Positions 6-31,365 of a stretch of DNA of 64,000 nucleotides are shown piece by piece. The stretch's first letter is position 1. Each line of letters opens with the position of its first letter. Under the pieces are notes generated by a model. That model saw only the letters and a program-made list of their open reading frames with translations. It searched no databases and was not told the DNA's origin. Location of the stretch: contig NZ_CBDANE010000005.1 of assembly GCF_965197445.1 (NCBI RefSeq), positions 139,877-203,876 on the forward strand, read 5' to 3'. The position numbers were made by a program, and so were the translations under genes. Origin of the DNA: Candidatus Palauibacter sp. GTDB lineage: Bacteria > Gemmatimonadota > Gemmatimonadetes > Palauibacterales > Palauibacteraceae.

Positions 6-509
6 GTGGTGTCGCAGCCCAATGACTGGCTCGACCCCCTACCGCCCAAGCTTTCTGAGATCCAAAGGCTGCGCCTGGAGTTCTGGCACGCGTTCTGCGA
101 TCATGTCGCCGAGGAAGGGGCGAGGTTCAGTACTCGCAAGCCACACTCCGAGTCCTGGATGGAGATGGCGGTCGGCGCCGCCGGATTCCGGATCCGAGCC
201 ATCACTTCGACGTGGGATTCCCGGGATGGCAACTACGATTCCGGGGAGTTGCGCGCCGAGTTTGTCGTGAAGCGCCACGACGCCAACGACTTGTACGCTC
301 CGCTGCATGCCCATGCCGATGAGATCCGGGAAGAATTGGGCGAGGACCTAACCTGGGACAACCCACAGGACACGAAGACGTGGAGAGCCTATCTCCGCAA
401 GACCGCTGACATACAAGATCGTTCCAGTTGGCCGGACCAACACGAGTGGCTGCGGAGTCGCCTGGATCGTCTCTCCGAGGTCTTCGGGCCCATGGTGAAA
501 GGACTCTAG
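6..509 (+). CDS. Hypothetical protein, possibly DUF4268-like. It may be truncated by the window edge.
   Basis: Single 167-aa ORF with a GTG start at position 6. There are no catalytic motifs. The assignment is recalled from the general fold/consensus only. Confidence 0.4.
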   Translation: MVSQPNDWLDPLPPKLSEIQRLRLEFWHAFCDHVAEEGARFSTRKPHSESWMEMAVGAAGFRIRAITSTWDSRDGNYDSGELRAEFVVKRHDANDLYAPLHAHADEIREELGEDLTWDNPQDTKTWRAYLRKTADIQDRSSWPDQHEWLRSRLDRLSEVFGPMVKGL

Positions 510-860
510 CGGCAACGGGCCCCTCGAAATCGGTGGACGACTTCGTCGGTATCGGCAAGCTGCAGGGCGGCCTGATAGTTAAGCTGTTCAGTTGTCCAAA
601 AAACTGGGACCACCTCAGTCTGCATCTCCTCCACCGACTCGTACCAAGTCGTCCTTCCCTTCACCCTGAGGTGTTCGTCCAGGAGCGTGCAGTGGAAACG
701 CTCGATGAACCCGTTCGACTGCGGACGGCCCACCTGGGTCTTTCCAATGCTCGATCTCCTCGAGCCTGCAGGAACAGCTCGTAGGGGTGATGGTCCTCCC
801 GACCGCAGAACTCGCGCACGTTGTCGCTGAGGATCGCCCGTGCCCCCGGCCGCATTCGCC
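506..860 (-). pseudogene. DDE transposase fragment (rve/integrase core C-terminal part), frameshifted
   Basis: Frame A translates to ILSDNVREFCGRED...FLQARG. Frame B translates to GRPQSNGFIERFHCTLLDEHL...TTWYESVEEMQ. Both are typical of the C-terminal half of an IS3/IS481-type integrase catalytic domain. The fragment is split over two frames and lacks an N-terminus. Confidence 0.6.
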
Positions 861-879
861 CGGTATCACCGGACGACTC

Positions 880-940
880 CCCACGGAACCAGTGGACGGC
901 TTCGCTCGGAATGGGTGGTCGACTTCGTCGGAATACGCAC
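880..940. repeat. IS-end-like repeat. It is homologous to 515-560 and to 13595-13650.
   Basis: cggaaccagtggacggcttcgctcggaatgggtggtcgacttcgtcggaatacgca is about 85% identical to the segment at 13595-13650. Its core, GGACGACTTCGTCGG, also occurs at 530-545. Confidence 0.6.
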
Positions 941-1019
941 GGTCTCTGTTACGCCTTCGAGAATAAAGTGCCGATTCCGCCCATCGTTTCCGTTCGCCAT
1001 TGTGGGGACCGTGCGCCGA

Positions 1020-2009
1020 CTACGCGTTTGGCTCCGCCAGCCTGTTGCTGACCGCCTTGAGCTCGTCGATCACGACCCGAATCTCCTCCTCCCGGATCCG
1101 CGCCCGCTGCCCGACCAGTGCGTCTTTGAGAACATCGTTTGCTACTCGCGCCACATCGGCGAAGCTCAGTCCCATAGCGCAGTCGGCGAGATCGCTCCAC
1201 GCGATGTCCCGCGAGGCGGCCGGACCAAGCCGCGTTTGCAGTAGCTCGGCGATTTGGGGGACGTCCGGCATCTCGAAGTGAAGAATGTCGTCAAAGCGAC
1301 GGAAGAGTGCCCGGTCGAGCACCTTTGGATGATTCGTCGCTGCCATCACGATGCTGTGGGAGTCGTCCTGCTCGATCATCTGGAGGAAGCTGTTCAGCAC
1401 ACGCCGGATTTCGCCCACGTCGTTGGAGATCCCGCGTTCCGAACCGATTGCGTCGAACTCGTCGAAGAAGTAGACGCCCCTTGTCTGGCCGGTGGCGTCG
1501 AAGATCTGGCGCAGCTTGGCTGCGGTCTCTCCCATGAACCTGGTGATCAGGCCGTCGAGCCGAACCTGAAGCAGGGGGAGACGAAGTTCCCCGGCCAGGA
1601 CGGAGGCGGACAGCGTCTTCCCGGTGCCTGGAGGGCCCACAAGCAGGAGCTTGCGCCTCGGCGAGAGGCCGTGGTCGAGGATCTCGCCGGCGTGGCGCTG
1701 TTCGCGAACGACCCGGCAAATGCGACTTGCCAAGGCCTTTCCGAGGATCATGTCCCCGAGCCGCGCCTTGGGGTAGGAAACTTGGAGCAGGTTGGCCAGC
1801 TCCCCGCGCGGCCGACCAATCGGGACCGGGGATCCTGCCTCACCGCGGCTCTTGGCCTTATCGATAATGTCGCGCAGATCGGTGGCCAGTTTCCCGTGCC
1901 CGACCTTCGCTTCGTGGGCGGCGACCTGCATGGCGACCGAGATGAATCGGTCGTTGTCGCCCTCCAGATGCGACCTCAGCAACGCCTTGAGCTGCTCGGC
2001 ACTGGCCAT
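1020..2009 (-). CDS. AAA+ family ATPase (CbbX/SpoVK-like) with an ~100 aa N-terminal domain
   Basis: Walker A motif LLLVGPPGTGKT. Walker B motif VYFFDEFDAIG. Sensor/arginine-finger region ATNHPKVLDRALFRRF. The ORF is intact at 329 aa. Confidence 0.85.
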   Translation of the reverse strand: MASAEQLKALLRSHLEGDNDRFISVAMQVAAHEAKVGHGKLATDLRDIIDKAKSRGEAGSPVPIGRPRGELANLLQVSYPKARLGDMILGKALASRICRVVREQRHAGEILDHGLSPRRKLLLVGPPGTGKTLSASVLAGELRLPLLQVRLDGLITRFMGETAAKLRQIFDATGQTRGVYFFDEFDAIGSERGISNDVGEIRRVLNSFLQMIEQDDSHSIVMAATNHPKVLDRALFRRFDDILHFEMPDVPQIAELLQTRLGPAASRDIAWSDLADCAMGLSFADVARVANDVLKDALVGQRARIREEEIRVVIDELKAVSNRLAEPNA

Positions 2010-2838: not shown

Positions 2839-2950
2839 TCTCCCATCGCGCGCCAGCCTCGGGAGCACCCCGGTTTTCTCTCGAGAGAGGCATTTCACCG
2901 GTACGCTGAAAACGCCATATGGGTGAAATTCACTTGATGTTTTTCACCGT

Positions 2951-4072
2951 ATGTGCTATTTTCAGCGTATGATGAAAACCCATGATTCAGTAAACGACCC
3001 AGGAATCGCCGCCTTGCACGCGGCCCGCGACCTGCTCGGACACGTGCCGCACCTGGAGGCCGGTGCGGTCCGCCAGGAGCACCGGCTCGGCCACGCTCGC
3101 ATCGACGGATGCATCGAGTTCGAGCACGGCGATGAGGCCTATGCCCTCCTCATCGAGGTCAAGCGGAGCGGTGCTCCTCGTTTCGTCCGTTCCGCAGTCT
3201 ATCAGCTCAAGGGATACCTGGCGCATGCTCGCGAGTCCGCCCCCGGGGACCCCGGCCAACGATGGATCCCCATGCTCGTGAGCCCATACTTGTCGCCCGA
3301 GTCTCGGTCGATCTGCATGGATCACGACGTCGCTTACCTGGACCTGGTCGGGAACGCACATCTCGCTTTCGATAACGTCTATATCGATCGGACCGTCGCT
3401 GACAGGCCCAAGTCTGCAACCCGCGCTCTAAGATCGATGTTCACGCCGAAGGCGGCCGCGATTCTCCGGGTGCTCCTTCGCGATACTGCCCGGGCATGGC
3501 GCGTAACGGAACTGGCGGAAGCGGCCGACGCGAGCCTCGGCCACGTGAGTAACGTTCGCAAAGCCCTGCTGGCGCGGGAATGGATCGAGACGCAGAAGGA
3601 CGGTGTCATCCTCGTCCAGCCGGACGCGCTACTGAAGACGTGGCGCGAGGAATACCGCAGGCCGACTGGCCGCCGCATCAGCGGGTACACGCTCTTCCAT
3701 GGCAAGCAACTCCACGAGCGGCTGTCGGGAAAGCTCAATTCGGAACCACAGCGTCCGCGCGCAATCTACTCGTCGAATTCAGCCGCCCAATGGCTGGCGC
3801 CCTTCCTCCGTGGTGGCACGCACAACTTCTACGCCGACGAACCGGGCGCTCGGGTGTTGAAGGAGGTGTTGAAGCTGACCCGTGCCGAGAAAGGAGCAAA
3901 TGTTACCGTGTGGGTCCTCAAGGATGAGAGTCTGCTCAAGGACGCTGTTGAGCCGGCGCCAAGCGTCTTCTGCACATGCCCGATCGTCACGTACCTCGAT
4001 CTCTGGAACGGCAACGATCGGGATCGTGAGGCGGCCGACCACTTGGCTTCGAGGTGCTTTCCGTGGCTGTGA
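2951..4072 (+). CDS. Predicted regulator with an N-terminal PD-(D/E)xK-like motif and a central winged helix. It is an AbiEi-like partner of the downstream nucleotidyltransferase.
   Basis: Candidate nuclease signature IDGCIEFEHGDEAYALLIEVKRSG (D...ExK). wHTH-like segment RVTELAEAADASLGHVSNVRKALLAREWIE. The 3' end overlaps the next ORF by 19 bp. The likely true start is ATG ATG AAA at about 2969. Confidence 0.5.
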   Translation: MCYFQRMMKTHDSVNDPGIAALHAARDLLGHVPHLEAGAVRQEHRLGHARIDGCIEFEHGDEAYALLIEVKRSGAPRFVRSAVYQLKGYLAHARESAPGDPGQRWIPMLVSPYLSPESRSICMDHDVAYLDLVGNAHLAFDNVYIDRTVADRPKSATRALRSMFTPKAAAILRVLLRDTARAWRVTELAEAADASLGHVSNVRKALLAREWIETQKDGVILVQPDALLKTWREEYRRPTGRRISGYTLFHGKQLHERLSGKLNSEPQRPRAIYSSNSAAQWLAPFLRGGTHNFYADEPGARVLKEVLKLTRAEKGANVTVWVLKDESLLKDAVEPAPSVFCTCPIVTYLDLWNGNDRDREAADHLASRCFPWL

Positions 4073-4926
4073 CGGAGCCTCAATCCGCCGGCGACTACGA
4101 TGATCGGACGACGGCGGCGGTCAAGTCCGTGTTGGTCGAGATCGGCCAGGTCCTCGGCAGCTTCAGGGGCAAGTTTGCAGTTATCGGCGGGGCTGTTCCC
4201 TGGCTGTTGCTGAGCGAAGCCGACATGCCCCATATCGGAACCCTCGATGTGGACCTCGGTCTCGACGCCTCCGCCCTGGGCGACGGCGAATACGTTCGAC
4301 TTGTCGAAGCCCTGCAGACACACGGCTACCAGCAACGGGAGAGTCTGCGGCGTTTCCAGCTCGTCCGCACCGTACCCACCAGGGATGGGGGACCCGACAT
4401 CGACGTAGTCGTCGACTTCCTGATGCCGCGCGACGCCGAGATTGTAAGGAACAGGCCGCCGCTCATCAGCCAGTTTGCCGTCCAGCGAGCCGACGGGGCC
4501 GACCTGGCGCTCAGATTCTATCAGATGGCCGCCATCGAAGGAGATATGCCCGATGGGGGCAGGAATCTCGTTCGTATCGCCGTTGCGTCGATTCCAGCCC
4601 TCCTGGCCATGAAAGGCTACGCCATCGCCAATCGGTTCAAACGCAAGGACGCCTATGACATCTACTATTCGATCCGGAATTTTCCGGATGGGATGGACGC
4701 ACTTGTAGAAGCAACCAGACCTCTTCTTGACGTACCATCGGCACGGCGAGGCTACTGTTTGATCGCCGACAAGTTCCGTGACGTCGAAGACTTTGGACCG
4801 ACGAGCGTCAGGCGGTTCGTGGAGGAAGCCGACCTGCTCGGCGACCGCACCGCGGATCAATGGCAGCAAGACGCCTTCGGACAGGTTGACGCATGGCTCA
4901 GAGAACTGGGCCTGAGGGTTACATGA
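4054..4926 (+). CDS. Nucleotidyltransferase, AbiEii/AbiGii-like (pol-beta superfamily)
   Basis: IGGAVPWLLLSEADMPHIGTLDVDLGLD matches the pol-beta pattern of GG/GS, a ~14-residue spacer, then DxD. The gene is translationally coupled to the upstream wHTH protein. Confidence 0.65.
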   Translation: MLSVAVTEPQSAGDYDDRTTAAVKSVLVEIGQVLGSFRGKFAVIGGAVPWLLLSEADMPHIGTLDVDLGLDASALGDGEYVRLVEALQTHGYQQRESLRRFQLVRTVPTRDGGPDIDVVVDFLMPRDAEIVRNRPPLISQFAVQRADGADLALRFYQMAAIEGDMPDGGRNLVRIAVASIPALLAMKGYAIANRFKRKDAYDIYYSIRNFPDGMDALVEATRPLLDVPSARRGYCLIADKFRDVEDFGPTSVRRFVEEADLLGDRTADQWQQDAFGQVDAWLRELGLRVT

Positions 4927-6494: not shown

Positions 6495-6532
6495 GTAGTT
6501 GACATTATGGAGACGATTCACGCAGTTTGTCA
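6495..6532. promoter_or_regulatory. Inverted repeat plus -35-like box upstream of the XRE-ImmA gene
   Basis: GTTGACA...(23 nt)...TGTCAAC, containing TTGACA. Confidence 0.35.
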
Positions 6533-6562
6533 ACCATCGTTTACGCGAAGAGAGGGGACGGC

Positions 6563-7642
6563 ATGTTTGGAAAACGACTACGGCTCGCCCGTAAACGCGC
6601 CGGCCTTTCCATGCGGGCGCTGGCCGAGCGGATGGATCCGAAAATCACCGCTCAGGCCATCAGCAAATACGAGGCGGGGAAGATGATGCCGTCTTCGGCC
6701 GTCCTGGTCGGTCTCGGGCAGGCTCTCGATGTGTCGCTGGACTTCCTCATGAGCTCCCAGGTCGAGGTCCTCGACGGCCTTGAGTTCCGGAAGCACTCCA
6801 GCACCTCCGCCCGGGATCGCGCCAAGGCCGAAGCCGTGCTGATCGACAACCTCGAGCGATATCTGACCATCGAGGAAGTCCTCGGTATTCCACCTGCGAG
6901 CGACCGTTTTGAAGGCCATCGGTACGACGGCGTTGCCGATGTCGAAGAGATCGATGACAGGGCCGATGAACTCCGCAACGCGTGGGACCTCGGCCTGGAT
7001 CCCGTGCCCAGCCTGTGCGCCCTCCTCGAGGAGAAGGGGATAAAGGTGATCGAAGACGATCTCCCCGAGCGCATCAACGGGCTGGCCTGCCGAGTCCTGC
7101 GAGAGGGCAAGCCGGTCGCCGACGCCGTCCTCGTATCGAGTCGGACCAACGTGGAGCGGAAACGATCCACCCTGGCCCACGAACTCGCGCACAGGATCAT
7201 CCGTTCCACCGGCAACCCGGCCATCAAGCTGGAAGCGGCCATGAACCGTTTCGCAGGCGCCTTCCTTGTCCCGGGCCAACATCTCATTCAAGAAGCCGGG
7301 GAAGGCCGCCGCCGCATCACCTATCATGAAATCGTCCGCCTCAAGCACATGTACGGCGTGTCAGCGGCGGCCATGCTGGTACGCCTTGGTCAAGTCGGCG
7401 TGCTGCCTCGTGCCGCGGTCCAGCGCGCGTTTCGAACCTTCGCCCGCTCCTGGCGCAAGTCGGAACCGGAACCCATTCACGGCAACCAAGGGTTCGCGGC
7501 GTTCGAGAAGCCTCGGCGCTTCAAGGGCCTCGTCTTGCGCGCCGTCGGCGAAGAGCTGATCTCGCCGGTTCGGGCGGCCACTCTCCTTAATGAATCCCTC
7601 GACGCGGTCGAGCAGCAGATCACCGGTCCGATCCACCAGTGA
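6563..7642 (+). CDS. Fused XRE-family HTH and ImmA/IrrE-family (DUF955) zinc metallopeptidase regulator
   Basis: N-terminal HTH_XRE (RLRLARKRAGLSMRALAERMDPKITAQAISKYEAGKMMP). The peptidase domain carries the HEXXH motif HELAHRI and the downstream ImmA-type segment AGAFLVP. Confidence 0.8.
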   Translation: MFGKRLRLARKRAGLSMRALAERMDPKITAQAISKYEAGKMMPSSAVLVGLGQALDVSLDFLMSSQVEVLDGLEFRKHSSTSARDRAKAEAVLIDNLERYLTIEEVLGIPPASDRFEGHRYDGVADVEEIDDRADELRNAWDLGLDPVPSLCALLEEKGIKVIEDDLPERINGLACRVLREGKPVADAVLVSSRTNVERKRSTLAHELAHRIIRSTGNPAIKLEAAMNRFAGAFLVPGQHLIQEAGEGRRRITYHEIVRLKHMYGVSAAAMLVRLGQVGVLPRAAVQRAFRTFARSWRKSEPEPIHGNQGFAAFEKPRRFKGLVLRAVGEELISPVRAATLLNESLDAVEQQITGPIHQ

Positions 7643-7861
7643 CGCGTGTCACTGTCAACGACGCTTCCTGCCTGATCGACCTCCGCAAGTTGGCTCGCCG
7701 TTCTACGAGCTGCCTGAACCCGCTCGCTCCGGAACACAAGGTCATCCGGGCAACCCTCCGAGCCTATTTCACACTCTACTTCACAAACGAGACACCCTGC
7801 GGTATGATTCCCTGGCGAGCCACCGCATAGCCACGCCGTTCATCGACAAACGAGCCATCAC

Positions 7862-8671
7862 GTGAATGCTGCCGACACGCCTCTGACCGGGCCGCCCCCG
7901 CCCGAGGTACCGCTGACTGACCCGCCGCTCGTGCGGGTCATCGCCCAGGTGCGCTTTCCGCTCATCGCGTCGTTGGAGAAGCGGGAGTTCATCGCGTCAT
8001 TTCAGGAGGCCATTCGGGAGTTCTACCCGGTGCTGCGTCCAGAGGAGGGACGCAGCGTCGTCCTGGGCTCACAGGGAGCGGTGGACACACGTTCGAACAC
8101 CTTATGGCGCTTCAACGAAGCGAGAGGGGCATGGCGTGTCACACTGGCACCCGACTTCCTCGCGCTGGAGACCACGAAATACACGAGCCGTGAAGACTTC
8201 ATGGAGCGCTTGAGGCTGGTCTTGGAAGCACTCAAGGAGCACGTCGATCCGCAGGTATTGGATCGCCTCGGCGTGCGTTACATCGATCGCGTGTCCGGGG
8301 AGAACCTGAGCGCTCTTCCCCAGCTCGTTCGCCCGGAAGTGGCGGGCATTCTGGGATCCCCACTCGCCGCACGTGCTCACCGCGCCGTCTCGGAAAACGT
8401 GTTCATTCTGCCCGGGAACGCGGGTCAGATTACCGCCCGCTGGGGGCTGCTGGCGCCGCGAAGCACGATTGACCCCGGGGCGCTGGACGCTATCGACGAG
8501 CCCAGCTGGATCCTTGATACCGACGCCTTCCAGTCATTTCAGACAGGCAGCCGGCGGCTCGATGTCGACTCGGCGGTCGAGCAGGCGCGAGGCTTCGCCG
8601 AACGCATCTACAGCATCTTCCGCTGGGCGGTAACGAATGAGTTTCTGCGACGGTACGGAGGTGACCCATGA
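7862..8671 (+). CDS. Conserved hypothetical protein, TIGR04255-like
   Basis: VRVIAQVRFPLIASLE...LWRFNEARGAWRVTLAPDFLALETTKY matches my recollection of TIGR04255. There is no catalytic motif, and the name is not verified. Confidence 0.5.
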   Translation: MNAADTPLTGPPPPEVPLTDPPLVRVIAQVRFPLIASLEKREFIASFQEAIREFYPVLRPEEGRSVVLGSQGAVDTRSNTLWRFNEARGAWRVTLAPDFLALETTKYTSREDFMERLRLVLEALKEHVDPQVLDRLGVRYIDRVSGENLSALPQLVRPEVAGILGSPLAARAHRAVSENVFILPGNAGQITARWGLLAPRSTIDPGALDAIDEPSWILDTDAFQSFQTGSRRLDVDSAVEQARGFAERIYSIFRWAVTNEFLRRYGGDP

Positions 8672-20048: not shown

Positions 20049-20214
20049 GCACGCCAGAATACCCGCTCAGTCGTACGGGTACCCCTCGTAGTGCCGTGCC
20101 AACTCGAGATCCGGCATCGAGGGGGTACTGGTCTGGTCACGCCGGGGCACATGATGGCATTTCAGCAATCGCTGAAAACGCCCTAAAGAGTGAAATAGAT
20201 CAAGTGAGGAGGAC

Positions 20215-20931
20215 ATGACCATCGAAAGCGGACCGGCCGAACTGAGGCTTCGCACGTTGCGTGTCGGGTATCGCCGGGGGCAGTGGGTGCTGGGTGGACT
20301 CTCCCTCGACATCGTGCCCGGCGAGGTGCTCGCGGTGGTGGGACCCAACGGCTCGGGCAAGACGACCCTCTTCCGCACGCTTCTGGGGGTGCTGGCTCCG
20401 ATTGACGGCGAGGCCACAGTGTCCGGCGCCGGCCCGGCGGACTACCGGCGCCGGCACGGTATCGGCTATCTGGCGGAAGACACGGTGCTCCCGCCGCGCT
20501 GGACATGCGACGAGCTGCTGGCGCTGGCGGCCGCCGCGGCCGGTCCCGAGGCCCATATCGAGCGCGCGTGTCGTCTGGCCGGGCTGGACTTCGACACCCG
20601 CGGTCTCGCCGACTCGCTATCCAAAGGGATGCGGCGCCGACTGGCGCTCGCCATGGCTCTGATGCGACCGACCGGGTTGCTCTTCCTGGACGAGCCCGAA
20701 TCGGGACTGGATCCCGGGCAACGCATCCGCCTCCGCAGGCGGATCGAGGAGATTCGCGGCCGGACTACGATCCTGGTCGCCAGCCACGACCTCGGCGAAC
20801 TGGCGATGATGAGCGACCGCGTGCTCCTGATCGACCAGGGGCGCGGGCGCGTCGTGCAGCAACCGGAAGGCGGGTTTACGCGCGAGTTCCTGGAGACGGA
20901 GTTCGTCGGGCTGGAAGGGGCGGTGTCATGA
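20215..20931 (+). CDS. ABC transporter ATP-binding protein
   Basis: Walker A GPNGSGKTT. Signature LSKGMRRRLALA. Walker B LLFLDEPESGLD. H-loop ASHD. Confidence 0.9.
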   Translation: MTIESGPAELRLRTLRVGYRRGQWVLGGLSLDIVPGEVLAVVGPNGSGKTTLFRTLLGVLAPIDGEATVSGAGPADYRRRHGIGYLAEDTVLPPRWTCDELLALAAAAAGPEAHIERACRLAGLDFDTRGLADSLSKGMRRRLALAMALMRPTGLLFLDEPESGLDPGQRIRLRRRIEEIRGRTTILVASHDLGELAMMSDRVLLIDQGRGRVVQQPEGGFTREFLETEFVGLEGAVS

Positions 20932-26879: not shown

Positions 26880-29735
26880 TCAACGTGCGCCGCGCGGCTT
26901 CCCCGCCACCCGCTTCTTCTCCTCCTCCAGCGCGTCCAGCGCCACCCCGTCCGTGATCCACGCCGGCGCCGGCTCGCCCTTCAGGTAGTGCCCGAACCAC
27001 TCCAGGATGCGCCGGTGGTAGTCCTTCTGGTTCGCCTCCTCGCGGAAACCGTGGTCCTCCCCTTCGTAGACGAGCAGCACCATCTGCTTCCCGGCGCGGC
27101 GGGCGAAGTTGAAGAACTCGGTCCCCTGATCCCAGTCCACCACGCCATCCTCGTCGCCGAAGGCCATCAGCAGCGGCGTCTCCATGTTGTGCACTTCGTG
27201 GACCGGCGAATTACGGCGATGCGCCTCCGGATCCTCCCAGAACGGCACCTCCATGCGAGCCTGGCCGGTCTCCCAGTGGCTCAGCTCGGCGATGCCCGGG
27301 TTCCAGTGCAGCGCGCCCATGAAGCTCACGAAGTCGGTGAGCGGCGCGCCCGCCACGGAAGCCGCGAAGATGTCGGTCCGCGTGGGCAGGAAGGTCGCCT
27401 GATAGCCGCCCCACGAGTGCCCGATCAGGCCGACCGCGTCCGGGTCCGTCACTCCCATCTCGACGGCCTTCGCCACCGCCGCCCGCACGGACTCCAGCGC
27501 GCTCACCCCCGGATCCCGCACCCGGTATACGATGTCGGGCAGCAGCACCGCGTATTCGTGCTGGGTCCAAGCCGTGTAGTTGTAGTAGTCCCGCTCGCTG
27601 GGGACCTCGAAGAGGTGCATCTGCGGGGAGAGGATCTCGTAGGTGTACACGATCGTGGGGACCGCGCTGCCTTCCTCGTAGTTCGGGGGAAGAAGGAGGA
27701 CGAACTGAAGGTCGCGGCCCGATCCGCTCACGAAGTCGACCAGCTCCGCTCGGCCCCACGCCACCTCGTCGATGAAGGGGTTGATGCCGGTCACCTGGTC
27801 GGAGTCGGCGAGGTCGGGCCCCGCCACGAAGTAGTCCGGCGGGTCGTCGAAGCGCTCGGCGCGGTAGAAGAGCACGTCGGCGCTGTCGGCGCGTTCGAGG
27901 CCGCGCACGTAGGCATCTTCCAGGATCAGGGTCTCGGCCAGGTCCCGGTCCGGCGCCCCGGCCCAGCCGGTCGTGAAGCGGGCGTAGCCGCGCTCCTCCG
28001 TCTTCTCGTTGTAGAGGGACAGGTAGGGGCGCGAGTCGGGGTCGAGACCGGGTTCATCGTCGTCGTCCGTGACGCGGGTCATGCGGTGCGTGAGTCCCGT
28101 CTCCGCGCCGTGCGTCAGCCGCTCGCCGCCCGAGCCGTCCGGTGCGACGCGCCAGACGTCGTGCTCGTCGTAGAGCAGAACCGCGTTGTCGCCTTCCAGC
28201 CACCCGCCGGGACCGAAACCGTGCGGGGGCGTCACGTCGGTGGGCGTGTCGTAGTCCGTGTCGGCGAACTCGGCGGCCAACCCCGACGTCAGGTCATGCT
28301 TCGCGCCCGTGGCGATATGGAGGCTGTGGTAGGCGGAGCCGTCCCATGAGAGCAGCCAGTCGCCGCTCGCGCTTGGCCATTCGTAGCGCACGCGGGTCAG
28401 GAGCTGGCGGCGCTCGCCGGTGCCCGCGTCGACGGCCCGGACATCGTGGTACGGACGGCCGAACATCGCGCCCCACGGATAGGGCTCGCTGATGTCCTCC
28501 AGCGCGTACTCCCAGCCGTGCAGGAGTTGAGCGGCGCTCATCAGGTCGGACCCGAGGACGACCACCCGGTCGTCGTCCAGGTGCCAGACGGCCAGCAGCG
28601 ATCGCGTGCTGTCGCGGTCCTCGGAGACCTGCTGCTCCGGGAAGAGGCGGACGTCCCCGGTGTGCCAGATCTGCAGGGCGGGGAGGTCGGGTTCGGAGTC
28701 GGAGGCCGGGGCGTCCGGGGCGCCCTGATCCGGTTCCGTCTCTACCTCCGGCTCGTCTTCCGTGCCGTCGCCGGGATCGTCGCCCTCTTCCTTCTCGATC
28801 GGCCGGAGCCCCAGAGAGATCATGCGGCCATCGTCCGACCAGGCGGGGGCGCGGTGATGGACCGCCTCGAGCGTGTCGGGGATACCGGCGGTGTTCGCAC
28901 CGAGGACCGTCGTCTCGACGCGGCGGTCCAGGTCGCGCCATGCCAGAACGTCGTAGGCGCTGCCGTCGGCGGAAGCGGCATCCCTGGAGCGGAGGGCGGC
29001 CAGATCTGCGGAGTCATCGCGCCAGCGGAGGCTCCGGTAGGCGGAACCGGAAGCGTCGGCGGAACGCAGGATACCGGCAGCGGCATCGTACACCTGCACC
29101 CCGTTGCCCACATCGGTGCCCGTCGCGATGGCGAGCGCAAGCAGGGATCCGGCCGGGCTCCAGGCCATCTCGCTCACGTTGCCGAAGCTGGTTTGCGTCC
29201 CCGTTGCCAGCGTGACAATGCGGAGGTCGGCGCCCTTGCCCGAGGGCTCGTCCGGCGGGTAGCCGCGTAGCGCCATGAAACTGCCGGAGGCGTCGAAGCG
29301 CTGCTCGGAGACCGCGTCGAACTCATGGGTCTCTCCGGTCTGCAGATCCATCGCCGAAGCCTTCTCACGGATCGGCTCGTCGCTCTTCTCAAGCCGCTCC
29401 CGTTCCTCCGGCGGCAGACCGATGGTCCAGGCCAGCCAGCGGCCGTCGGGGGAGAACCGCGGCGCTGAGCCCCATGGGAAGATCCGGACGGAGTCCTCTT
29501 CGAGCTTGCGCACGCGGAGTTCCGACTTCTCGTCCACCCGGGTGACCACGTAACCGACCCACTCACCGAAGGGCGAGAACTCGACGACGCCGAGTCCTTC
29601 CCAGCGGCCGTAGTCGTCGGGGGTGACGAGGGGGCGGTCCTGGGGGGAGGCGGGGGAGGGGAGGACGAGCGCGAGACCGCCAAGGGCGGCCAGTGTGGCG
29701 AGCGTCGGGAAGCGGGAGGGGAGGGTTGAAGTCAT
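26880..29735 (-). CDS. Secreted S9 family serine peptidase (prolyl oligopeptidase/dipeptidyl-peptidase type) with a large N-terminal beta-propeller
   Basis: Signal peptide MTSTLPSRFPTLATLAALGGLALVLP. Catalytic nucleophile motif GHSWGGY. C-terminal DEDGVVDWDQG and EDHGF (Asp and His of the triad). Confidence 0.85.
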   Translation of the reverse strand: MTSTLPSRFPTLATLAALGGLALVLPSPASPQDRPLVTPDDYGRWEGLGVVEFSPFGEWVGYVVTRVDEKSELRVRKLEEDSVRIFPWGSAPRFSPDGRWLAWTIGLPPEERERLEKSDEPIREKASAMDLQTGETHEFDAVSEQRFDASGSFMALRGYPPDEPSGKGADLRIVTLATGTQTSFGNVSEMAWSPAGSLLALAIATGTDVGNGVQVYDAAAGILRSADASGSAYRSLRWRDDSADLAALRSRDAASADGSAYDVLAWRDLDRRVETTVLGANTAGIPDTLEAVHHRAPAWSDDGRMISLGLRPIEKEEGDDPGDGTEDEPEVETEPDQGAPDAPASDSEPDLPALQIWHTGDVRLFPEQQVSEDRDSTRSLLAVWHLDDDRVVVLGSDLMSAAQLLHGWEYALEDISEPYPWGAMFGRPYHDVRAVDAGTGERRQLLTRVRYEWPSASGDWLLSWDGSAYHSLHIATGAKHDLTSGLAAEFADTDYDTPTDVTPPHGFGPGGWLEGDNAVLLYDEHDVWRVAPDGSGGERLTHGAETGLTHRMTRVTDDDDEPGLDPDSRPYLSLYNEKTEERGYARFTTGWAGAPDRDLAETLILEDAYVRGLERADSADVLFYRAERFDDPPDYFVAGPDLADSDQVTGINPFIDEVAWGRAELVDFVSGSGRDLQFVLLLPPNYEEGSAVPTIVYTYEILSPQMHLFEVPSERDYYNYTAWTQHEYAVLLPDIVYRVRDPGVSALESVRAAVAKAVEMGVTDPDAVGLIGHSWGGYQATFLPTRTDIFAASVAGAPLTDFVSFMGALHWNPGIAELSHWETGQARMEVPFWEDPEAHRRNSPVHEVHNMETPLLMAFGDEDGVVDWDQGTEFFNFARRAGKQMVLLVYEGEDHGFREEANQKDYHRRILEWFGHYLKGEPAPAWITDGVALDALEEEKKRVAGKPRGAR

Positions 29736-30586
29736 AGGGCACTCTCCTGGGAATCGCTGGAATCAGGGAATGAAGCCGACCCCTTCCACGGGTCGCCCGG
29801 CACGAGGGCGACGAACCGGTCCCGAACGACGTTCATGGCTGTGCGGATGTCCCACAAGAGTCCAGGTCGGAGCAGGGGGTCCATGTCTTCGCGGAAGTCG
29901 TGCAGTGTCTGTTTACCGTGGAGATTCTCCTCGAACTGTGCCCGCGTGACGGAGTGGCCATTCTCCGTCATGTAACGAAGGAAGCACGTCAGCACGGTAC
30001 GCGGGTCGACCGAACCCATCTCCGAGGCATACCAGAGATCGAAGAGATCGCGCCCCTTCTTGCGCTGGTAGAGCGCCCTGAGCTTGGTTCCGAGCAGTTC
30101 CTCGAGTGCGTAAGTGGTCACTTCTGCAGATCCGCCAAACCATGGACTGTCGACGAAAAACGCTACACTCCTGAGCCCGAGTTCGGAAAAGTGCTCTCGG
30201 GTGTTGATCTCAACCTTCAAGCGTAGTTTCAGCGGCGGCACATCTTCCGAAGCGAAACGGTACATCAGCTTGACCGCACCCTCCTTGAGAGTCCGTCGAG
30301 GTTCTCCCAACCACGGATCGAGCCGCGACCGCATCTGGTCAAGCGTATCCCCAATCGGCTCAGGGCGGACCTGAACGAGGTCGATGTCTTCCGAGTATCT
30401 TGGCGACGGCGTCAGGTGGAGCTTGTACAGTGCCGTGCCGCCGCGGAAGGCGAGCCTGTTTGCCAGATCGGGCACTCGAAACAGCTCGACCAGTGCTCGA
30501 CTTATCACAAGATCCTGCTCAACCTGCGCGTCGATCACCCACGGCGCCTGGGCGCGCCAGCGTGTAATGTAGTCCCGAGGGATCAT
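29732..30586 (-). CDS. AbiEii/AbiGii family nucleotidyltransferase toxin (type IV TA / abortive infection)
   Basis: AFRGGTALYKLHL...RYSEDIDLV is the hallmark DUF1814 nucleotidyltransferase motif. Confidence 0.85.
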   Translation of the reverse strand: MIPRDYITRWRAQAPWVIDAQVEQDLVISRALVELFRVPDLANRLAFRGGTALYKLHLTPSPRYSEDIDLVQVRPEPIGDTLDQMRSRLDPWLGEPRRTLKEGAVKLMYRFASEDVPPLKLRLKVEINTREHFSELGLRSVAFFVDSPWFGGSAEVTTYALEELLGTKLRALYQRKKGRDLFDLWYASEMGSVDPRTVLTCFLRYMTENGHSVTRAQFEENLHGKQTLHDFREDMDPLLRPGLLWDIRTAMNVVRDRFVALVPGDPWKGSASFPDSSDSQESAL

Positions 30587-31365
30587 TCGTCCGGCTCGAT
30601 GTCGATGTTCACGATGAGCTTCCAGGTTCCATTGCGGTCGGCCCCGGTGCGGCTGACGGCGCGGCGAAGGGGCGTAAAGCTTTGAGCGTGCGCGCTGACA
30701 AACGGACGCAGCGTTCGGGCAAGATCAATTTCCTCGATGCGTTCAAGGAGATATCCGAGGCGCTGCGACCAGCTCACCGGTGAGAGGTGTGCGGCCTCCA
30801 CTAGACTCTCGGCCTCCATCTCGTCGACAAGATCGTGCAGGACCGCAAGAACGTTGCTTAACCCCCCCGCATGGTTCGGGTAGCCGACGAGTTCCAGCGC
30901 CGTCAGTTCCGGGGTGGAGTAGCGAGCCGTCCCGCGCGGTGTGTTGAACTCGCGCACAGGCATTCGGCGGAGATCACGACGTGCGACGAACTCGACGCGA
31001 ACCTGCCCGCACTCGATGGAGGGGCGGTTCTTTCGCATCATGACCTTGTCGACTTGCGGACGCTGGTGGGCCGCGCCGTGTCTCTGAGCCGCGCTGAGCA
31101 GCGCAAAGTAGTAGGGCTCTCCGATCAGCCCCATCAGTTGCGGAATGAACTGCTCCGCCGGGAGACAGCCTCGGCTCCTGTATTCCGGCGGGATGATGAT
31201 GTGAAAGCTCTGCACGGGTTCGGCGATCGCGCCTCGGGCCTTTAGTCGCCGCAACTGCGCTCGAACGGCGCCCGGACTACGTCCGGTAGCCTTGGCGACC
31301 TCATCGGTGGTGAAATGATAGTCTCCACGCGCCGCCAGGTTGGCGACATATTCCCGAGCAAACAT
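30583..31365 (-). CDS. AbiEi family antitoxin/transcriptional regulator
   Basis: N-terminal wHTH (FTTDEVAKATGRSPGAVRAQLRRLKARGAI). 260 aa. The stop overlaps the AbiEii start. Confidence 0.8.
   Translation of the reverse strand: MFAREYVANLAARGDYHFTTDEVAKATGRSPGAVRAQLRRLKARGAIAEPVQSFHIIIPPEYRSRGCLPAEQFIPQLMGLIGEPYYFALLSAAQRHGAAHQRPQVDKVMMRKNRPSIECGQVRVEFVARRDLRRMPVREFNTPRGTARYSTPELTALELVGYPNHAGGLSNVLAVLHDLVDEMEAESLVEAAHLSPVSWSQRLGYLLERIEEIDLARTLRPFVSAHAQSFTPLRRAVSRTGADRNGTWKLIVNIDIEPDE

Follow-up and report, generated by a model that had tools for sequence, protein, structure and literature searches.

Two adjacent genes on the plus strand of the analyzed DNA (hereafter the window, i.e., the complete stretch of 64,000 nucleotides) were originally called as open reading frames (ORFs) at positions 2951-4072 and 4054-4926. 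The first, designated ORF A, encodes a presumed antitoxin and autoregulator, while the second, designated ORF B, encodes a nucleotidyltransferase that is presumed to be the toxin. As judged by its family matches, the pair is a regular member of the catalogued, uncharacterised COG4861-COG4849 (MenA2-MenT2-type) class, and structural modelling indicates that the first third of the presumed antitoxin folds like a restriction endonuclease. The genome with the nearest match (99% identity) is a metagenome-assembled genome (MAG) of Candidatus Palauibacter, a member of the Gemmatimonadota whose species names point to sponge and coral hosts.

Both ORFs represent real genes rather than chance reading frames, since each belongs to a large family of homologues (>1,200 database homologues of ORF A with 65-90% identity, and >2,850 of ORF B with 78-97% identity). 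An earlier note on this DNA, made from the letters alone, had quoted the strings RIDGCIEFEHGDEAYALLIEVKRSG and IGGAV...GTLDVDL, both of which are found in the translations of ORF A and ORF B. The same note had described an upstream protein of 370 residues and a transferase gene at 4054-4926; both genes are present as claimed, while their starts have to be moved. For ORF A, the most likely start is ATG 2969, which gives a product of 367 residues beginning with MMKT. Its homologues are 366-368 residues long with the N-terminus M[MVL]K, and the upstream ATG 2951, which falls in the spacer of a conserved promoter, ahead of the -10 box, is ruled out as the start by these lengths and N-termini and by its position. 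The most likely start of ORF B is GTG 4069, giving 285 residues as compared to 283-287 in its homologues. This GTG overlaps the stop codon of ORF A (4070-4072) by four nucleotides (GTGA), and an equivalent ATGA/GTGA junction is found in most related loci. The features of the locus and of its surroundings are collected in Table 1.

Table 1. Features of the ORF A/ORF B locus, followed by neighbouring genes (positions are those of the window)
Feature	Position	Strand	Basis or remark
Distal operator-like palindrome TTTCACCGGTACGCTGAAA (TTTCA-N9-TGAAA)	2893-2911	+	0.00 expected by chance in window
Extra half-site TGAAA flanking the -35 box	2924-2928	+	
Candidate -35 box TTGATG	2934-2939	+	
Extra half-site box TTTCAC	2942-2947	+	81-97% conserved per base in 79 sequences; visible in distant clade
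Candidate -10 box TATTTT	2957-2962	+	
Predicted sigma-70-type promoter, TTGATG - 17 nucleotides - TATTTT	2934..2962	+	Sequence reading, cross-locus conservation
Proximal operator-like palindrome TTTCAGCGTATGATGAAA (TTTCA-N8-TGAAA)	2960-2977	+	0.00 expected by chance
ORF A, 367 residues, three domains, COG4861/AbiEi_2 family; presumed antitoxin/autoregulator	2969..4072	+	Homologues, Pfam, AlphaFold2
N-domain, residues 10-144, PD-(D/E)xK restriction-endonuclease-like fold	2996..3400	+	Model, Foldseek, residue conservation
Winged helix-turn-helix, residues 157-228	3437..3652	+	Weak Pfam HTH, Foldseek, invariant columns
C-terminal domain, residues 234-363, Pfam AbiEi_2	3668..4057	+	PF09952 score, model
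ORF B, 285-residue DUF1814/AbiEii-type nucleotidyltransferase; presumed toxin	4069..4926	+	Motifs, PF08843
DUF4268 gene at window edge, next to rve fragment	6-509	+	Pfam E 1e-23
Integrase-core (rve) fragments	~506-884		Profile matches
IetA-like AAA ATPase	1020-2009	-	PADLOC IetA E 4e-73
RmrA-like XRE-HTH + M78 peptidase gene	6527-7642	+	PADLOC RmrA E 5e-43
TIGR04255-family gene, after RmrA-like gene	7862-8671	+	E 3e-44

Two AlphaFold2 models of ORF A were obtained, the first of which had only close homologues as input and rendered the N-domain and the winged helix well, with the C-terminal domain left unmodelled (predicted local distance difference test, pLDDT, ~30-40). The second model used 88 sequences with 43-82% identity to ORF A, including an added clade with 43-50% identity, and reached a mean pLDDT of 88.8 and a predicted template modelling score (pTM) of 0.81; following the addition of this distant clade, the C-terminal domain was also modelled well (pLDDT ~90). 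The two models agree on the N-domain (pLDDT ~80-95), which is predicted to comprise a helix (residues 11-24), three strands (30-40, 43-53 and 56-64), a second helix (70-90) and a further strand (97-105), i.e., the alpha-beta-beta-beta-alpha-beta core of the PD-(D/E)xK nucleases. The putative catalytic residues are placed accordingly within the model, with D46 (codon at 3104-3106) early in strand 2, and E63 (3155-3157) and K65 (3161-3163), separated by a single valine, at the end of strand 3.

When compared to the PDB by Foldseek, as the earlier note had suggested for the N-terminus, both models returned PD-(D/E)xK proteins as their top matches, followed by winged-helix regulators. The E-values range from 4e-4 to a few times 1e-2, with approximately 116-128 columns aligned for single-domain matches. 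These matches include XisH (2okf and 2inb; E 1e-3, TM-score 0.51-0.53), NucS/EndoMS (2vld and 5gke), PaqCI (8em1) and MspJI (4f0p), as well as Cdn1, Card1, FokI and Nt.BspD6I. The viral structure library BFVD returned domain-level nuclease matches only, e.g., to herpesvirus UL24 and a phage restriction endonuclease. Sequence similarity to nucleases is weak but points the same way: the N-domain gave weak matches to NucS (E 0.045) and Cas4 (E 0.049), NucS_C (E 3.6e-4) and VRR_NUC (E 1.5e-3) were each matched in one relative only, and the profile of the N-domain family found NucS in the PDB at a marginal E of 0.1-0.4. The designer pentatricopeptide and helical-repeat proteins that headed the latter search were rejected as spurious sums of many sub-threshold repeats. 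A Pfam search returned no match in the first ~150 residues of ORF A, a domain for which Pfam has no model, and a sequence search of ORF A and ORF B against the PDB returned nothing at E <= 10. The restriction-endonuclease-like N-terminus that the earlier note had read from the sequence is thus upheld by the modelled fold and by the Foldseek matches, and the possibility considered there, namely that the whole protein is a standard COG5340 regulator without a nuclease fold, does not agree with the presence of this fold and the lack of any match to AbiEi_1, AbiEi_3 or AbiEi_4.

The winged helix and C-terminal domain that were proposed to follow the N-domain are likewise supported by the model and by Pfam. 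The winged helix exhibits weak Pfam matches to the MarR, IclR, RepL and Crp HTH families (residues 158-230) and structural matches to the winged helix-turn-helix proteins NolR, ArsR, MarR and Crp, while the stretch S189-L-G191-H192-V-S194-N195 of its predicted recognition helix is invariant and represents the most conserved segment of ORF A. The C-terminal region (residues 215-362) matches PF09952, i.e., AbiEi_2, with 24.0-24.1 bits (cutoff 21; E 5e-5), and 43 of 57 diverse full-length relatives (24-63% identity) match the same model, the best with an E of 5e-17.

PF09952 corresponds to COG4861 (PMC7251935), whose genes were reported in 2014 by Dy et al. to be tightly linked to those of COG4849 (STRING score 99%) and whose members display no sequence identity to the AbiEi proteins of COG5340 (PMC3985639). 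The MenA2 (Rv0837c)-MenT2 (Rv0836c) pair of Mycobacterium tuberculosis belongs to this COG4861-COG4849 class (PMC7450476), and relatives on plasmids are labelled by NCBI as 'type IV toxin-antitoxin system AbiEi family antitoxin' and 'nucleotidyl transferase AbiEii/AbiGii toxin family protein'. A HMMER search with the N-domain alone retrieved 506 cluster representatives, with the full-length matches among those listed being ~350-400 residues long and the shorter ones having the appearance of fragments. Since practically all listed relatives carry this nuclease-fold domain N-terminally, it is the norm of the family rather than a peculiarity of this locus. The suggestion that the pair represents a distinct new defence variant is therefore not sustained: ORF A matches AbiEi_2/COG4861, the pair has been known since 2014 and the N-domain is shared by the family. 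The literature searched makes no mention of a nuclease-like domain in AbiEi, COG4861 or MenA2, and neither DUF2186 nor COG4861 nor PF09952 is listed in the main text of the 2012 survey of PD-(D/E)xK proteins.

ORF B is, as had been claimed, a second nucleotidyltransferase of the pol-beta type, and more specifically one of the DUF1814/AbiEii type. PF08843 is matched over residues 159-225 only and with a score just short of its cutoff (22.0-22.1 versus 22.5 bits, E 1.7e-4), while the same model is matched at E <= 0.01 by all 42 ORF B relatives considered (78-93% identity; best E 1.5e-7), and many relatives already carry a precomputed PF08843 match. DUF1814 proteins are defined by motifs I-IV, of which motifs I and II take the form hG[GS]-x(n)-DhD with a spacer longer than that of pol beta, the spacer being 15 residues in AbiEii (PMC3985639). 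ORF B possesses I-G40-G41 and D60-V-D62 separated by 18 residues, motif III as K182-G-Y-A185-I-A-N-R189 and motif IV as K193-D194-A-Y-D197, all of which are invariant among the 42 relatives. Equally invariant is T58, located two residues ahead of D60 (T58-L-D60-V-D62). In MenT1, T39 is the site of autophosphorylation and D41 the catalytic base, with K137 and D152 also implicated (PMC11375011); T58-x-D60 matches T39-x-D41, and T58 is thus a candidate equivalent of the phospho-acceptor. A CBASS-like (cyclic oligonucleotide-based antiphage signalling system) or CD-NTase (cGAS/DncV-like nucleotidyltransferase) assignment was rejected, as no such PADLOC or Pfam match was obtained and ORF B possesses DUF1814 motifs III and IV.

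The 90 bp upstream of ORF A hold repeated TTTCA/TGAAA boxes, which were analyzed in an alignment of 79 sequences (78 loci and the window) anchored at the ORF A start codon. In this alignment, per-base conservation is 81-97% within the palindrome and promoter boxes, and the intervening bases are close to random. A generic promoter scan of the region returned nothing and the candidate promoter matches only 8 of 12 consensus positions; it was recognised because of its conservation across loci, a TTGAC...TAtTTT arrangement being kept in related loci from many phyla. The proximal palindrome shares sequence with the -10 box, with the predicted start of transcription and with the first three codons of ORF A, and lies 67 bp from the distal palindrome in the window. 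Among 141 related loci, an exact proximal TTTCA-N8-TGAAA is found in 112, with an 8-nucleotide spacer in 111 of these 112, and an exact distal TTTCA-N8/9-TGAAA is found in 53, located 64-69 bp upstream of the proximal one. The layout is retained in the distant clade (42-47% protein identity), with the consensus TTTCAGCAnnTGCTGAAA. Since the -10 box ends six nucleotides before ATG 2969 and no Shine-Dalgarno sequence precedes this codon, the mRNA of ORF A is probably leaderless.

The half-site TGAAA of the proximal palindrome forms codons 2-3 of ORF A, which accounts for the restriction of residue 2 to M, V or L (NTG codons) and for the near invariance of K3; across the 141 loci, a regulatory site appears to constrain the N-terminus of the protein. 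The invariant recognition helix together with the invariant operator argues for autorepression, as has been demonstrated experimentally for AbiEi (PMC3985639), and we infer that ORF A represses its own transcription through the two palindromes.

Two further elements resemble or adjoin this control region. The sole other exact TTTCA-N8-TGAAA in the window is located at 20160-20177 (TTTCAGCAATCGCTGAAA; 0.00 expected by chance), 38 nucleotides ahead of the start codon (ATG) of an ABC-transporter ATPase gene (20215-20931), and ~45 nucleotides around it resemble the distal-operator segment of ORF A (GGCATTTCA..CGCTGAAAACGCC..GTGAAAT; noted span 20154-20215). This site could be what remains of a second copy that has since been lost, or else the winged helix of ORF A could have a second target here. 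A hairpin of terminator type with a T-run after it (TCGGGAGCACCCCGG TTTTCTCTCG; 2859-2882, plus strand) closely precedes the distal operator and could shield the operon from transcription coming from upstream.

The association of the two genes was assessed in two samples. The first consisted of the 80 closest genome loci selected by ORF A (L001-L080); this subfamily as a whole gave about 350 loci among GTDB species genomes. These 80 loci, many of which derive from MAGs of sponge symbionts, span Gemmatimonadota, Latescibacterota, Acidobacteriota, Binatia, Rhodothermales, Alpha- and Gammaproteobacteria, Thermodesulfobacteriota and Trueperaceae. A transferase homologue lies directly 3' of ORF A in 74 of the 80, mostly with an ATGA/GTGA overlap. 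In the 78 loci that are not cut by a contig end, the transferase is full length in one frame in 54, frameshifted in 8, reduced to a remnant of 20-174 residues in 13, and absent with an unrelated gene in its place in 3, i.e., 24 of the 78 intact ORF A genes have a damaged transferase next to them or none at all. The reciprocal sample consisted of 80 metagenome loci selected by an intact transferase (L082-L161), and here ORF A is located directly upstream in all 63 loci with sufficient upstream DNA, while 13 contig-cut loci are consistent with the same arrangement. The asymmetry (0/63 versus 24/78; Fisher p = 1e-7, or p = 6e-5 where truncations and deletions only are counted) is the pattern expected of a costly downstream toxin that depends on an upstream antitoxin. 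The transferase is also the more conserved partner (e.g., ~72% versus ~45% identity in the metagenome set). Among individual loci, the transferase is split in the closest relative (L001, ORF A 99% identical), and a SurE-like gene is next in L034, L037 and L052, with a transferase remnant of <=20 residues in the first two.

At least eight phyla or classes contain relatives with 62-78% identity for ORF A and 73-88% for ORF B, many of them from sponge-associated MAGs, which implies recent horizontal spread. Two copies occur in OZ253557.1 (L040 and L053) and in OZ220750.1 (L054 and L068), and such copies could cross-regulate each other through a shared operator. Full-length relatives with 41-46% identity are present on 108 plasmid records, of which 52 are conjugative or mobilizable, in Agrobacterium, Rhizobium, Ralstonia, Cupriavidus, Klebsiella and others. 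Abundance on plasmids and a patchy phyletic spread are typical of selfish or defence modules. A phage-borne origin was rejected, as one relative only was found among 2.9 million viral contigs and the BFVD matches are at domain level only.

Taken together, these data favour the reading, with a probability of roughly 0.6, that ORF A and ORF B constitute a bicistronic, autoregulated module of the toxin-antitoxin type that belongs to the COG4861-COG4849 class, sister to AbiE (COG5340-COG2253). Judging by its spacing and conservation, the sigma-70-type promoter would fire at or next to ATG 2969 to yield a leaderless mRNA, from which ORF B would be translated by coupling via the GTGA overlap that is present in the sequence. 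ORF A, probably as a dimer, would bind the two TTTCA-N8/9-TGAAA palindromes through its winged-helix recognition helix, and occupation of the proximal site would mask the -10 box together with the starts of transcription and translation and thus repress the operon, a proposal that draws on conservation and on the analogy with AbiEi. By analogy with MenT1, MenT3, MenT4 and AbiEii, ORF B would add nucleotides to the acceptor ends of tRNAs and arrest translation, and the AbiEi_2 domain may neutralise it by binding and/or by inducing autophosphorylation of T58. More speculatively, the N-domain may serve as a nucleic-acid-binding and possibly catalytic module, most likely for dimerisation and/or DNA sensing, with nuclease activity possible in the members that retain D46, E63 and K65, ORF A among them.

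Several observations weigh against this reading. MenT2, the sole studied member linked to COG4861, was not toxic in Mycobacterium smegmatis or Escherichia coli (PMC7450476) and was omitted from later biochemistry (PMC11375011), and the toxicity of ORF B can thus not be assumed; moreover, the kinship with MenA2-MenT2 is drawn from family membership. The score of ORF B falls just under the Pfam cutoff (22.1 versus 22.5). Its family profile found no solved MenT or AbiEii structure by sequence in the PDB, the sole and marginal match being a 'nucleotidyltransferase-like protein' (5uvd; motifs I/II, E 1.5). With regard to ORF A, no PDB match to its C-terminal domain appeared in the Foldseek top 50, and this domain alone showed no detectable similarity to the AbiEi of the window (hhalign E 0.049). 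As homology of the antitoxin domain was not detected, it is gene context that underlies the name 'AbiEi' for COG4861 proteins, and the role of ORF A as antitoxin is presumed from this context and a Pfam name. Finally, the two decay samples stem from different collections and are each biased towards an intact query gene, some of the transferase frameshifts may be assembly errors, and the persistence of an intact ORF A where the transferase is deleted could also reflect a separate function of ORF A.

The latter point bears on a two-effector defence system, in which the N-domain would function as a DNA endonuclease and cleave or detect the DNA of invaders, an assignment that we consider unlikely. 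The accompanying proposal, that ORF A would be both effector or sensor and keeper of the transferase, with phage DNA titrating or activating ORF A and thereby freeing ORF B, is in our view similarly doubtful. The complete D46/E63/K65 triad is present on the correct strands in the window protein, and the best structural matches are true nucleases. Among the 57 diverse relatives, D46 is kept in 53, E63 in 46 (and replaced by D in one) and K65 in 44 (and by R in two), and among 67 close relatives these residues are kept in 63, 61 and 61, respectively; as mean column identity in the diverse set is only 27%, the triad stands well above background. ORF A is also full length where the transferase is truncated or deleted, with a complete triad in 12 of 16 such loci, which suggests a value independent of the transferase, and the locus is set among other defence or toxin-antitoxin genes. 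Set against this, about a quarter of close relatives (62-99% identical) have one triad residue substituted, i.e., 15 of 54 with an intact transferase (39 of 54 being complete) and 4 of the 16 without, which renders nuclease activity doubtful. The catalytic residues of an essential enzyme are normally its most conserved, but the invariant residues of the N-domain are D125, G128 and N129 of the motif Y-L-D125-L-x-G128-N129, and not the triad. Neither a methyltransferase gene nor any other gene for self-protection lies next to the pair, no PADLOC model recognises ORF A, and we know of no phage-defence phenotype for the COG4861-COG4849 class. We read the N-domain as nuclease-derived and possibly active in ORF A, with a catalysis that is not essential to the core function of the module.

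A bolder version, for which the odds appear low, would extend to the whole COG4861 class, MenA2 included: its "antitoxins" would be working DNA-sensing or DNA-cutting PD-(D/E)xK enzymes, and the pairs would be nuclease-gated transferase systems. If so, foreign or damaged DNA on the N-domain would release or activate a tRNA-modifying transferase, and such gating would at the same time account for the apparent inertness of MenT2 in standard toxin-antitoxin assays.

The opposite proposal, which we regard as improbable, is that the N-domain is a dead scaffold, i.e., an exapted nuclease fold that only dimerises the repressor on its palindromes, ORF A being just an AbiEi-like repressor and antitoxin. 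Palindromic operators call for a dimer, whereas a monomer has been reported for canonical AbiEi (PMC3985639), and the repeated loss of the triad in close relatives and the location of the most conserved N-domain motif, YLDLxGN, outside the classical catalytic triad would also fit this proposal. However, retention of the triad in 72-80% of members over deep divergence is above what would be expected of unconstrained residues. That the pair is neither a toxin-antitoxin nor a defence system, and combines a regulator with a non-toxic nucleotidyltransferase of physiological role, e.g., in RNA or small-molecule modification, is highly improbable: MenT2 showed neither toxicity nor detectable activity and was dropped from later work (PMC7450476, PMC11375011), and the transferase displays unusual conservation (73-97% identity across phyla, above its partner), but it often decays beside an intact partner and was never seen without one, is common on plasmids and patchy across phyla, and retains all catalytic motifs of known toxins.

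The pair lies, on the basis of profile matches, among other genes of defence or toxin-antitoxin type. No recognisable IetS protease partner is found near the IetA-like ATPase, and the DNA downstream of the ATPase gene (region 506-2009, minus strand) contains only short ORFs, which are spread over several frames and of which one includes an rve_3 fragment. The Iet system thus has a degraded appearance, and an insertion sequence may have disrupted it. The RmrA-like gene also matches the NCBIfam spr1629-family repressor/antitoxin (E 5e-23), and the genes at 6527-8671 may form another toxin-antitoxin or defence module. The canonical AbiE pair that the earlier note had placed at 29732-31365 is indeed present (AbiEii E 3.7e-39; AbiEi_1 E 2.1e-45), and is encoded on the minus strand with a 4-nucleotide start/stop overlap at 30583-30586. 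Together with ORF A and ORF B, this pair indicates that the genome carries both classes of DUF1814 module.

COG4861-COG4849 pairs are abundant and yet represent the sole branch of the AbiE/MenAT systems without a mechanism, since MenT2 is inert in standard assays. The locus in the window is an ordinary member of this family, and the system as such is not new. What the present analysis adds is a fold assignment, from modelling, for the N-domain of the family, a probably leaderless promoter with twin palindromes that is conserved across phyla, and genomic evidence that the transferase behaves like an ORF A-dependent toxin. D46, E63, K65, T58 and the two palindromes provide experimental handles, and the N-domain may cut, sense or merely dimerise.

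Compared with other COG4861-COG4849 pairs, the locus displays the same AbiEi_2 model and the same arrangement, with the larger regulator gene preceding an overlapping, co-transcribed transferase gene (PMC3985639, PMC7450476), and no architectural difference in the features compared; the COG4861 proteins in the literature searched are described only as large winged helix-turn-helix regulators. The AbiEi-AbiEii systems of Streptococcus agalactiae and Lactococcus lactis (COG5340-COG2253) share the bicistronic order, with a winged helix-turn-helix regulator ahead of a DUF1814 transferase, as well as inverted repeats over the promoter and transferase motifs I-IV (PMC3985639). As the earlier note had recognised, the architecture of ORF A nevertheless departs from that of described AbiEi antitoxins: in AbiEi the winged helix is N-terminal and there is no third domain, whereas in ORF A it is central and follows a 145-residue domain with the PD-(D/E)xK fold, and no match to the Pfam AbiEi_1, AbiEi_3 and AbiEi_4 or the PADLOC AbiEi models was obtained. 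Similarity between ORF A and the AbiEi of the window is marginal (hhalign E 1.3e-3, probability 18%) and extends from the winged helix into the C-terminal domain as far as its first strand and helix, while ORF B and the AbiEii of the window align over motifs III and IV only. The operators also differ, with a pair of 18-bp palindromes here versus two 23-bp inverted repeats in AbiE.

The MenA1-MenT1 and MenA3-MenT3 systems resemble the pair in their transferases, ORF B having a T58-x-D60 like the T39-x-D41 of MenT1 as well as candidate equivalents of K137 and D152, and are under type VII control by antitoxin-induced autophosphorylation; MenA1, with 68 residues and no winged helix, is unrelated to ORF A. 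The closest structural counterparts of the N-domain, i.e., XisH (2okf, 2inb), NucS/EndoMS (2vld, 5gke) and the PaqCI domain (8em1), exhibit the same core fold and the same placement of D...ExK (Foldseek E 4e-4 to 2e-3, probability 1.00, 116-128 columns, root-mean-square deviation 3.8-7 A), with 14-20% identity and no significant sequence-profile match (best NucS, E 0.045-0.1). The triad of these proteins is not universal in the ORF A family, and ORF A is unlike them in that its nuclease-fold domain is fused to a winged helix and an AbiEi_2 domain.

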